Assembly (NCBI GenBank): GCA_003345555.1
Contig: PRDJ01000010.1
Coordinates: 1-32,000 of the forward strand
Reading direction: 5' to 3'
Length of the DNA stretch: 32,000 nt
Source: Candidatus Thorarchaeota archaeon
GTDB taxonomy: Archaea > Asgardarchaeota > Thorarchaeia > Thorarchaeales > Thorarchaeaceae
The number at the start of each line of letters is the position of its first letter. Within the stretch, counting starts at the first letter, position 1. Positions 7,059 through 9,118 of this stretch are shown piece after piece. The notes below the pieces were generated by a model. It did no database searches. It saw only the letters and a program-made list of their open reading frames with translations, and was not told the DNA's origin. The position numbers and the translations under genes were made by a program.

Positions 7059-8024
7059 ATGACGGCGTCGGCTTCAGAATTCAAACATTCGATGGCTAAG
7101 GGTTTTGACATCAGAGTGGCGCACTTTGGCCGGGACTTGATGTGCTACAGTCCTACCGCATACCCGTATAGAATCAGAGATCATTCGCAGTCAAATCGCA
7201 GCAGCTTTGTTTCGTTCAGTGTGACTGGTACCAGTTGTGCGCTAAAATGCGAGCATTGTGGAGGTCGTCTCCTTCATAGTATGGAACCTGCTAAGACGCC
7301 TGATTCACTTGTCAGGAAATGCAGGATACTGAAGGAGCATGGAGCCGAGGGCGTTCTGATAAGCGGTGGCTCGGACTCAGCGGGTCATGTACCAATCGAC
7401 AAGTATGCTGATGCGATACAGACAATCAAAAGGGACCTAGGACTGAAGGTTGTTGTCCATACTGGCCTTGTTGGTGAGGGCACAGCTAAGTCATTGGCAC
7501 TTGCACATGTCGATGCGGCAATGTTGGATATCATAGGTGATGAACGCGTAGCCACGGCGGTCTACCACGTACAAGACGGCCCTGAGAGAACCGAGAAATC
7601 TCTCATTATGTTGGAGCGACAGGGGATACCTGTTGTTCCTCACATTCTTGTTGGTCTCAATTATGGGCGATTGGGCGGCGAACTAGAGGCACTACAAATG
7701 ATTTCTTCGAGAAAACCAGCTGCAGTAGTTTTCATTGTTTTCAGCCCAATCCGGGGCACAATCATGGGGCATTTCTTGCCGCCGCCAGCTGAGGTTGTAG
7801 GCCGCTTGCTGACTATTGCCCGTCTTGGTCTACAATCGACACCCATTCTCTTGGGCTGCGCCCGCCCCATGGGTCAGCATAAGATTGAGTCAGATATTCT
7901 TGCTGTCAGATGTGGCATAAATGGAATAGCATATGTCAGTCAGGAAGGGGTCGATGCAGCACGTAGAGTGGGCCTAAGCCCGGTCTTCAGAGATATATGC
8001 TGCAGTCTCATTTACCAAGAATAG
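7059..8024 (+). CDS. lipS1: Radical SAM protein, LipS1-type lipoyl synthase subunit (COG1856-like); start may be GTG 7020 or ATG 7092
   Basis: SVTGTSCALKCEHC (CxxxCxxC), GVLISGG, VVPHILVGL, plus the LipS1 signatures GCARP and a C-terminal CC (DICCS). Confidence 0.75.
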   Translation: MTASASEFKHSMAKGFDIRVAHFGRDLMCYSPTAYPYRIRDHSQSNRSSFVSFSVTGTSCALKCEHCGGRLLHSMEPAKTPDSLVRKCRILKEHGAEGVLISGGSDSAGHVPIDKYADAIQTIKRDLGLKVVVHTGLVGEGTAKSLALAHVDAAMLDIIGDERVATAVYHVQDGPERTEKSLIMLERQGIPVVPHILVGLNYGRLGGELEALQMISSRKPAAVVFIVFSPIRGTIMGHFLPPPAEVVGRLLTIARLGLQSTPILLGCARPMGQHKIESDILAVRCGINGIAYVSQEGVDAARRVGLSPVFRDICCSLIYQE

Positions 8025-8601
8025 CGGACCGTTTGCTTTTCAGAAGCGATCCAGCTATCTCATAGCCCAAATCAAACATCCATATACCTACGGCACTGGG
8101 AAACAGGCCGGGCCAAAGGATACAGAGGAGTAGTGCCGAGAGCTTCAGGGTGAAGCGGTGTCTGAAGAACCATGCAGCGTTTGAGATCTTTGAGAATCCT
8201 ATGACTCCTTGAGTTCCAGACTCCATGATTCCATGACCCACCTCATCGATGGCTGCCGCAAGCAACAGCATGATGAGAAGAGCCCACCAGTCAAGCCAAG
8301 CTGTGACTACGGGAATGCCTCGAATGGCCAGCAATAGCCCAATTAGTAAGAAGCCCGCCATGAACTGGGGTTTGTCGACCTTGCCGGTCAACAGCACGCC
8401 AATCACAACTGCACCAAGCATGGCCATATCCCACTGTGACAGTGTCATTACTGTACCAAAGAATAGGCCCGAGAGTCCAAGCGGGAACCAAGCAAGGTTA
8501 GGTCGATTCAGCTCGTCAAGCAAGTCGTCTCCTGTCTTGAGCGTCAATCCCGCCGACCAGTACATCGCAAGGTAAATGATCCACCACATACTCTCTGGCA
8601 T
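8008..8601 (-). CDS. Conserved archaeal multi-pass membrane protein of unknown function
   Basis: About six hydrophobic segments. Motifs LKTGDDLLD and GKVDKPQF resemble a methanogen hypothetical membrane family. Confidence 0.7.
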   Translation of the reverse strand: MPESMWWIIYLAMYWSAGLTLKTGDDLLDELNRPNLAWFPLGLSGLFFGTVMTLSQWDMAMLGAVVIGVLLTGKVDKPQFMAGFLLIGLLLAIRGIPVVTAWLDWWALLIMLLLAAAIDEVGHGIMESGTQGVIGFSKISNAAWFFRHRFTLKLSALLLCILWPGLFPSAVGIWMFDLGYEIAGSLLKSKRSAILGK

Positions 8602-8624
8602 TCCTCAGGAAGTCATTGCTGAGG

Positions 8625-8698
8625 TGGCTCCTCAGTCTAACTATGACTCGTCGCAGGGCACGAATGCCCTCAGATAGCCAAGATCATCACCGGAGCCA
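8625..8698 (-). ncRNA. Box C/D 2'-O-methylation guide sRNA (double guide)
   Basis: Minus strand: terminal stem UGGCUCC/GGAGCCA; box C GUGAUGA (8690-8684); guide UCUUGGCUAU; D' CUGA (8673-8670); GGGCA-UUCG-UGCCC hairpin; C' GCGACGA; guide GUCAUAGUUAGA; D CUGA (8635-8632). TATA about 25 nt upstream. Confidence 0.85.
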
Positions 8699-8721
8699 TG
8701 TCAGTGTCTGATGATTCTCTG

Positions 8722-8730
8722 ATAAAAGTT
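8722..8730 (-). promoter_or_regulatory. TATA box for the C/D sRNA
   Basis: Minus-strand AACTTTTAT lies 24-29 nt upstream of the predicted sRNA 5' end at 8698. Confidence 0.55.
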
Positions 8731-8741
8731 GAGGGCTGCAC

Positions 8742-9026
8742 TCATAATAGAGTCACGGGAGTCCCCAAAGCCTGTCCCGGCAGGTTTGTCCGAAACTTCG
8801 CTCTGACTGCGCCGCTGTTGCCATGCACACCCAAGACTTTCCCAAGGAACTCGATGCCATTGGGCGAGACCCACTTGACATTCCGGCCCACAAGAGCGGC
8901 TGCGGCGGCCTTCGAGTCAACAGTATCAAACTCTAGTATGACTTGGCCAAAATGCTGAAGATGCTTTCCTCTGCGATAGCTGACTACAGTACCCGTGTGG
9001 CCCTTCAAGACTTTGCCTGCTGACAT
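8742..9026 (-). CDS. rpl35ae: 50S ribosomal protein L35Ae (eL33)
   Basis: GTVVSYRRGKHLQH..QVILE...LVGRNVKW....GKVLGVHGNSGAVRAKFRTNLPGQALG. ATG at 9026 preferred over the longer called ORF. Confidence 0.92.
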   Translation of the reverse strand: MSAGKVLKGHTGTVVSYRRGKHLQHFGQVILEFDTVDSKAAAAALVGRNVKWVSPNGIEFLGKVLGVHGNSGAVRAKFRTNLPGQALGTPVTLL

Positions 9027-9118
9027 TAGCGATTCCTCGCTGAGTGGGTTCTCGAGGCCTCTTGTCAGACACCATTTAAGACTTACTAAATGATGATATC
9101 GAATGCCCAATCCTTTCG

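Follow-up and report, generated by a model that had tools for sequence, protein, structure and literature searches.

The window analysed here, a 32,000-nt stretch of DNA from a Thorarchaeota genome, harbours on its minus strand (positions 8625-8698) a 74-nt gene which, judging by its anatomy and by comparison with related genomes, is a real, conserved box C/D sRNA gene. We put at roughly four in five the probability that the D guide of the encoded archaeal sRNA is directed at A2043 in helix 69 (H69) of the 23S rRNA, and its D' guide most likely at C2064. That the RNA is a previously uncatalogued member (it is not in Rfam) of a known class, the box C/D sRNAs, is well supported. Its target site has already been predicted in other archaea, and the modification has already been mapped in eukaryotes.

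The source genome is an Asgard (Thorarchaeota) MAG of 2.28 Mb in 82 contigs, in which no 16S rRNA was found despite a completeness rating of 93%. The 23S rRNA is on contig C47 with no 16S match adjoining it, and ARAGORN detected only 17 tRNAs in the whole assembly. DNA of this genome was found in wetland metagenomes (12 sequencing runs); hence, the host is probably mesophilic. The genome codes for the proteins of a box C/D sRNP. The fibrillarin (PF01269, 298 bits) and Nop5 (PF01798, 228 bits) genes adjoin each other on contig C18, and L7Ae-family proteins (PF01248, 96 bits; L7Ae on contig C26) are encoded in the same genome.

As in archaeal box C/D sRNAs, box C is found on the 5' side and box D on the 3' side, joined by a terminal stem. 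All features are on the minus strand. The 5' strand of the stem, UGGCUCC (8692-8698), forms a covarying helix of seven base pairs with the 3' strand, GGAGCCA (8625-8631). Box C is GUGAUGA (8684-8690), which conforms to the RUGAUGA consensus and has a UGA that is invariant in 15 homologues. It is followed by the 10-nt D' guide UCUUGGCUAU (8674-8683), the GGCUA core of which is invariant in the family, and by box D', CUGA (8670-8673), which is mostly CUGA or CCGA in relatives. The internal boxes D' and C' are closed by a hairpin, GGGCA-UUCG-UGCCC (8656-8669), with a covarying stem of five base pairs and a loop that is not conserved. Box C', CGACGA (8648-8653), is a degenerate version of UGAUGA that keeps both GA dinucleotides, as do nearly all homologues. 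The 12-nt D guide GUCAUAGUUAGA (8636-8647) has a core, UCAUAGUUA, that is invariant in 32 of 32 aligned Asgard homologues, and it is followed by the conserved box D, CUGA (8632-8635). Thus, the D and D' spacers, of 12 and 10 nt, have the length of ~10-12 nt expected for this class. A TATA-like box, TTTTATC (8721-8727), is centred ~26 nt upstream of the first base of the stem and probably acts as the promoter of the sRNA.

The complete C/D'/C'/D architecture, the 7-bp terminal stem and the dedicated TATA box described in a previous, sequence-only reading of this DNA are therefore all present, on the minus strand. The UUCG hairpin that it reported is present as well, but the UUCG loop is restricted to this genome, since relatives have GAAA, GCAA or other loops on the covarying stem.

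BLAST searches identified the element in ~14 relatives. In the alignments, the TATA box, the boxes and both guide cores are invariant or nearly so, while the 5' parts of the spacers, the hairpin loop and the flanks drift. The TATA box is at a fixed distance from the sRNA in 15 relatives. Both helices covary, with changes on both sides for 7 of the 12 pairs, and the covariation score of the real alignment was reached by none of 500 shuffled alignments. In controls in which the positions were slid, pairing dropped from 91% to <50%. In the terminal stem, 94% of the alignment cells are paired and three pairs have changed on both sides, and across relatives four of the five pairs of the internal hairpin show two-sided changes.

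We built a covariance model, R1, from 15 aligned sequences and ran it over 151 sampled genomes of the phylum. The gene itself scores 93 bits. R1 matched 24 of the 26 genomes of the same family, the single genome of a sister family and 12 of 13 genomes of a second Asgard family, as well as weak, scattered sequences elsewhere, although such counts over related genomes are not independent of each other. Anatomy, covariation and the R1 homologues in nearly the whole family thus agree that this Asgard genome has a genuine box C/D sRNA gene here, as had been proposed.

Guides of this class are expected to form at least ~9-10 bp with rRNA or tRNA, with a Watson-Crick pair at the N+5 position. We aligned the D guide with the 23S rRNA of the same organism, which reads ...GGGACUAACUAUGAGUCUCUUAAGGUAGCCAAAUGCCUUGUCGG... 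around H69 (GGGACUAACUAUGAGUC in shorter form). Ten contiguous Watson-Crick pairs join positions 2-11 of the guide (numbered from box D) to CUAACUAUGA (LSU 2040-2049) in the H69 loop, and by the N+5 rule guide position 5 faces nucleotide 2043. Only 25 of 3000 shuffled D guides (0.8%) reached 10 Watson-Crick pairs with the LSU. The target 10-mer is unique in the 2.28-Mb assembly, apart from the antisense of the sRNA gene. The sequence-only reading had given the target, on the basis of other taxa, as UAACUAUGAC, which is inexact, as the host has a G where that 10-mer ends with a C. The last pair is thereby lost and a C-G pair gained at the other end; complementarity to the H69 loop holds, and the predicted nucleotide is unchanged. 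A scan of 16S rRNA from the same genus revealed no credible target for either the D or the D' guide.

BLAST did not match the H69 region to any E. coli genome, and E. coli numbering was obtained by direct alignment of the host 23S rRNA to MG1655 rrlB. LSU nucleotides 2043 and 2064 correspond to A1913 and C1934, respectively, which agrees with the earlier assignment of the N+5 nucleotide of the D guide to the A1913 equivalent. The D guide is thus predicted, by analogy with characterised sRNAs, to direct 2'-O-methylation of A2043 at the tip of H69. This helix forms intersubunit bridge B2a and is in contact with both the decoding centre and the A-site tRNA. Yeast Psi2258 is the equivalent of E. 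coli m3Psi1915, and yeast Am2256 is guided by snR63 and human Am3739 by U46/SNORD46 (PMC2794176, PMC8817022). On this basis, A2043 is the counterpart of Am2256 in yeast and of Am3739 in humans, and the link to Am2256 and snR63 drawn in the sequence-only reading holds.

The D' guide had been proposed to pair ~20 nt downstream and to designate the C1934 equivalent. The motif in question, GUAGCCAA (LSU 2060-2067), is present in the host 23S rRNA 21 nt 3' of the D site, and its N+5 nucleotide, C2064, aligns with C1934. However, UCUUGGCUAU forms only seven Watson-Crick pairs with it, plus a G-U pair at position 1. This match is not significant alone: of 3000 shuffled guides, 2056 had an equally good match in some part of the LSU, and 234 had one no more than 100 nt from the D site. 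There are also competing targets. LSU C493 pairs with the D' guide as well as C2064 does, and in this genome the D-arms of tRNA-Leu(CAA) and tRNA-Ser(GGA) carry GUAGCCAAGC, which provides one pair more than the C2064 site (9 bp in tRNA-Leu(CAA)). The D' spacer has 10 nt, compared with an optimum of 12, and invariance within the family is limited to GGCUA (positions 2-6). Duplex length in the family varies between 6 and 9 bp, and several relatives have only 6 bp.

These features, together with the frequency of 'empty' or defective second guides in archaeal sRNAs (Dennis et al. 2015, PMC4644070), speak for a functional C/D sRNA that effectively guides modification of H69 only. The D' guide would then be vestigial, or serve as a non-methylating tether or chaperone, or target C11 in the D-arms of tRNA-Leu and tRNA-Ser. 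We regard this as a genuine possibility, though an unlikely one. It does not readily account for the invariance of GGCUA across ~16 genera in a spacer whose 5' part drifts, a pattern indicating selection centred on the N+5 pair, nor for the strong D' guides to the adjacent 23S strand in homologues from other lineages. In addition, position 9 of the guide, the source of the extra pair with the tRNAs, is not conserved, and to our knowledge no 2'-O-methyl group has been described at position 11 of archaeal tRNAs. The comparative data thus favour 23S rRNA over other targets of the D' guide, and we give roughly even odds to C2064 (E. coli C1934) being the target. A scan of the same genome for another RNA that might guide the CCUUGUCGG site yielded no candidate with a C-box context.

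The two guides are also partly complementary to each other. The D' guide UUGGCUAU (8674-8683, minus strand) and the D guide AUAGUUAG (8636-8647, minus strand) can form 8 bp, three of which are G-U, and the minimum free energy fold of the naked RNA pairs them (-32.7 kcal/mol, z = -3.6). Conservation of GGCUA could therefore have another cause. However, the second Asgard family, which has a different D' guide, does not show this self-complementarity, which was therefore rejected as the conserved constraint.

The D' guides of homologues are informative as to the second site. In the second Asgard family, the D' guide ACAAGGCAUU forms 10 Watson-Crick pairs with AAUGCCUUGU in the corresponding 23S rRNA, in which GUAGCCAA is replaced by GUAGGCAA. 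In six further Asgard families and several Thermoproteota with the H69 D guide, the D' guide is complementary to CCUUG(U/C)CGG, slightly further 3'. Since homologues in other lineages aim their D' guides at the adjoining 23S strand, the habit of the family, as read from these sequences, is to target H69 together with the strand leading into H71, with a second site that wanders over E. coli positions 1934, 1940 and 1945.

For the CCUUG(U/C)CGG-type D' guides (loci L182-L190, L135-L137 and L169-L171 among the relatives, and the published IHOsR91), the N+5 nucleotide is a G equivalent to E. coli G1945. By constant offset, G1945 would correspond to yeast Gm2288, which is the snR75 site (PMC8817022). 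These data suggest an ancient dual guide for A1913 and G1945, with the D' guide having since moved to C1934 in Thorarchaeota and to 1940 in another Asgard family; the ancestral D' site is likely to be G1945, which by the +343 offset would be the equivalent of Gm2288. In one genome of the sister family (locus L128, G025:C23, ~689-760), the H69 loop of the 23S rRNA (UAACUAUGACUCUC) is followed by unrelated sequence and not by UUAAGGUAGCC; the H69-H71 linker could contain an intron or an insertion there. The sRNA of that genome is devoid of the internal hairpin.

We then asked how widely the H69 guide occurs, using a pattern search of 400 Asgard genomes (C'-type GA..G, guide core, two nucleotides, CUGA; at most one mismatch). 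The pattern was found in 73 of the 85 genomes of the home family (f1), in 28 of 31 genomes of family f5 and in all five of family f17. Its frequency was at the level of the reversed-pattern control in families f9 (8/135), f12 (0/19) and f14 (0/12). Lone genomes of several other Asgard families also match. In the Thermoproteota, the pattern was found in 49 of 401 genomes, ~35 of which have the same single mismatch, UCAGAGUUA instead of UCAUAGUUA. In two such genomes, belonging to neither the Sulfolobus nor the Ignicoccus species discussed below, the H69 loop of the 23S rRNA is UAACUCUGA. Thus, the guide UCAUAGUUA goes with UAACUAUGA in Asgard 23S rRNA and the guide UCAGAGUUA with UAACUCUGA in Thermoproteota, at an equal distance from box D. 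This compensating change at constant register indicates that guide and target changed together.

The exact Asgard guide string does not occur among the sRNAs listed in the supplement of Dennis et al. 2015 (PMC4644070). The TACK variant of the guide is contained in two RNAs of that supplement, Sac-sR113 of Sulfolobus acidocaldarius and IHOsR91 of Ignicoccus hospitalis. Like the window RNA, both have C, D, C' and D' boxes and an H69 D guide equally distant from box D, with A1913 as the N+5 nucleotide. Their guide core is UCAGAGUUA and that of the window RNA UCAUAGUUA, a difference that follows that of the 23S rRNAs, read in other Thermoproteota genomes. The D' guide of IHOsR91 is directed at the H71 strand, with a spacer nearly identical to that of one Asgard family (UAACUCGGCAAGC vs UAACCCGGCAAGC); its type of target is CCUUGYCGG (G1945), in contrast with GUAGCCAA (C1934) for the window RNA. 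The D' guide of Sac-sR113 is unrelated to that of the window RNA, and the latter differs from both RNAs by its longer, closed D'-C' hairpin and its 7-bp terminal stem. As a guide to H69 in the same register exists in Thermoproteota genomes and in these two published RNAs, it is not Asgard-specific, and the special Asgard-eukaryote link implied in the sequence-only reading is not supported.

Helices H68, H69 and H71 are methylation hot spots in hyperthermophilic archaea, with dense predictions around E. coli A1912 (PMC4644070). In Pyrobaculum, ~45% of the sRNAs have two targets that are no more than 100 nt apart, and dual guiding of such nearby sites is typical of archaeal sRNAs (PMC6009581). 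The two sites predicted for the window RNA, 21 nt apart in domain IV and inside the hot spot, follow this rule. In contrast with those hyperthermophilic systems, the Thorarchaeota host is probably mesophilic and apparently has very few canonical C/D sRNAs.

No Rfam family, archaeal sR families included, was matched at gathering thresholds anywhere in the window, in line with the original description of the RNA as unannotated. In a permissive scan, SNORD46 (RF00218) ranked first, with a score of 23.2 bits and E = 0.0033 for the 161 nt searched, below its gathering threshold of 40 bits, so that the RNA is not a member of that family by the Rfam criterion. The alignment to SNORD46 covers the boxes and the D guide only. 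The same permissive scan of eight Asgard homologues returned sub-threshold C/D families only.

In SNORD46/snR63 and the window RNA, the guide core, GUCAUAGUUA, is identical, lies two nucleotides from box D and is aimed at the same target nucleotide. The eukaryotic H69 loop presumably shares UAACUAUGA with Asgard archaea, as the SNORD46 guide consensus also implies. SNORD46 and snR63 differ from the 74-nt window RNA in being ~100 nt long, in having no D' guide to H71 and in acting within Nop56/Nop58 snoRNPs. Their likeness may represent convergence on one conserved target. Alternatively, the window RNA could be the Thorarchaeota branch of a dual-guide family older than the Asgard-TACK split (D guide to A1913 in H69, D' guide to H71, ancestrally to the CCUUG motif at G1945, equivalent to Gm2288), of which SNORD46 and snR63 would be descendants rather than convergent look-alikes. 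Because the likeness is confined to the boxes and the guide, such descent is possible but unproven, and we consider it doubtful. If true, this RNA would belong to the very small number of guide RNAs that can be followed from archaea to eukaryotes.

The genes around the sRNA were also analysed. The L35Ae (eL33) ribosomal protein gene (8742-9110, minus strand; Pfam PF01247, E = 2e-17) lies upstream, with a 15-nt gap between its stop codon and the TATA-like box on the same strand. Downstream, the ORF list contains a 197-residue multi-pass membrane protein (8008-8601, minus strand), which gave no Pfam match and whose ATG (8601) is 23 nt past the 3' end of the sRNA. This ORF directly follows the sRNA in every genome of the family examined, with 42-72% identity. 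The order L35Ae-sRNA is kept in nearly all Thorarchaeota-family loci examined and in the sister family, and the order conserved in the Thorarchaeota family is an ORF of unknown function, L35Ae, the sRNA, the membrane protein ORF and a convergent radical-SAM gene. Neither inspection of the sequence nor a scan for sigma-70 promoters and intrinsic terminators, which is uninformative for archaea, revealed a terminator-like site or promoter signal between the sRNA and the membrane protein ORF. Read-through is therefore probable, and the sRNA and the membrane protein gene are probably co-transcribed. Between the 3' end of the sRNA and the ATG, a 6-bp hairpin, CCUCAG ... CUGAGG (8603-8624, minus strand), overlaps the GAGG just 5' of the start codon; it is not kept in relatives.

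Given the short distance to the ATG, the absence of a separate promoter or terminator signal in between and the conserved gene order, the element might be a cis-acting leader of the membrane protein mRNA, in which L7Ae-binding kink-turns control translation or stability and the complementarity to rRNA is secondary. We find this very improbable. In the second Asgard family, the homologous sRNA is found in a different gene context and yet retains its boxes and H69 guide, and a leader function does not explain why the guide covaries with 23S rRNA across phyla. Moreover, archaeal C/D sRNAs are commonly embedded in or located beside mRNAs. Finally, a chance constellation of motifs in an intergenic spacer, conceivable with such short boxes and a degenerate C', is refuted by conservation and covariation in >30 genomes, by the unique 10-bp match to H69 and by a strict whole-genome architecture scan in which only the window RNA had an rRNA match of at least 9 bp.

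That scan for full C/D architecture yielded two matches in the host genome, compared with one in the reversed genome. A k-mer scan for rRNA-complementary C/D candidates yielded 46 raw, uncurated matches that are mostly noise, compared with 16 in the reversed genome. Overall, the host genome appears poor in canonical C/D sRNAs. Two possible additional ones, in which C and C'-like boxes are accompanied by a guide ahead of CUGA, were noted on the minus strands of contig C57 (near position 40651 when the contig is reverse-complemented; 9-mer complementarity to LSU ~2506) and contig C41 (near 79579; 9-mer complementarity to LSU ~1432).

To return to the preferred reading, a guide for A2043 and most likely C2064, the anatomy, conservation, covariation and complementarity observed in the organism's own rRNA can be combined with what is known of characterised archaeal C/D sRNPs into a proposal for how the RNA is transcribed, assembled into an sRNP and used in methylation. 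The RNA would be transcribed from its own TATA box just 3' of the L35Ae gene, probably into the membrane protein gene. It would fold into a terminal C/D kink-turn with the 7-bp stem and an internal C'/D' kink-turn with the 5-bp hairpin, and these would bind L7Ae, Nop5 and fibrillarin. Pairing of the D guide with the nascent H69 loop would place fibrillarin opposite guide position 5. A2043 would then be methylated to Am at the tip of bridge B2a, the same modification as that guided by snR63/SNORD46 in eukaryotes. The D' guide would contact GUAGCCAA 21 nt further 3' (C2064), resulting in its methylation or in mere tethering of the nascent H69-H71 region.

The window RNA alone reveals no new mechanism. 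Nevertheless, a covariance model and an alignment now exist for a family absent from Rfam, with a specific prediction of Am at nucleotide 2043 of the LSU and, possibly, of Cm at nucleotide 2064. The dual-guide architecture appears common to the Asgard and TACK lineages, and the family provides an example of a second guide wandering along a neighbouring rRNA strand (E. coli 1934, 1940, 1945) from one lineage to another. The H69 Am (yeast Am2256, human Am3739) is among the modifications conserved across eukaryotes. Its guide is retained in a host that apparently has very few C/D sRNAs, which makes this retention notable, and it follows the change in 23S sequence between two archaeal phyla. These observations argue that the H69 modification is old and selected, rather than a thermophile-specific stabiliser.
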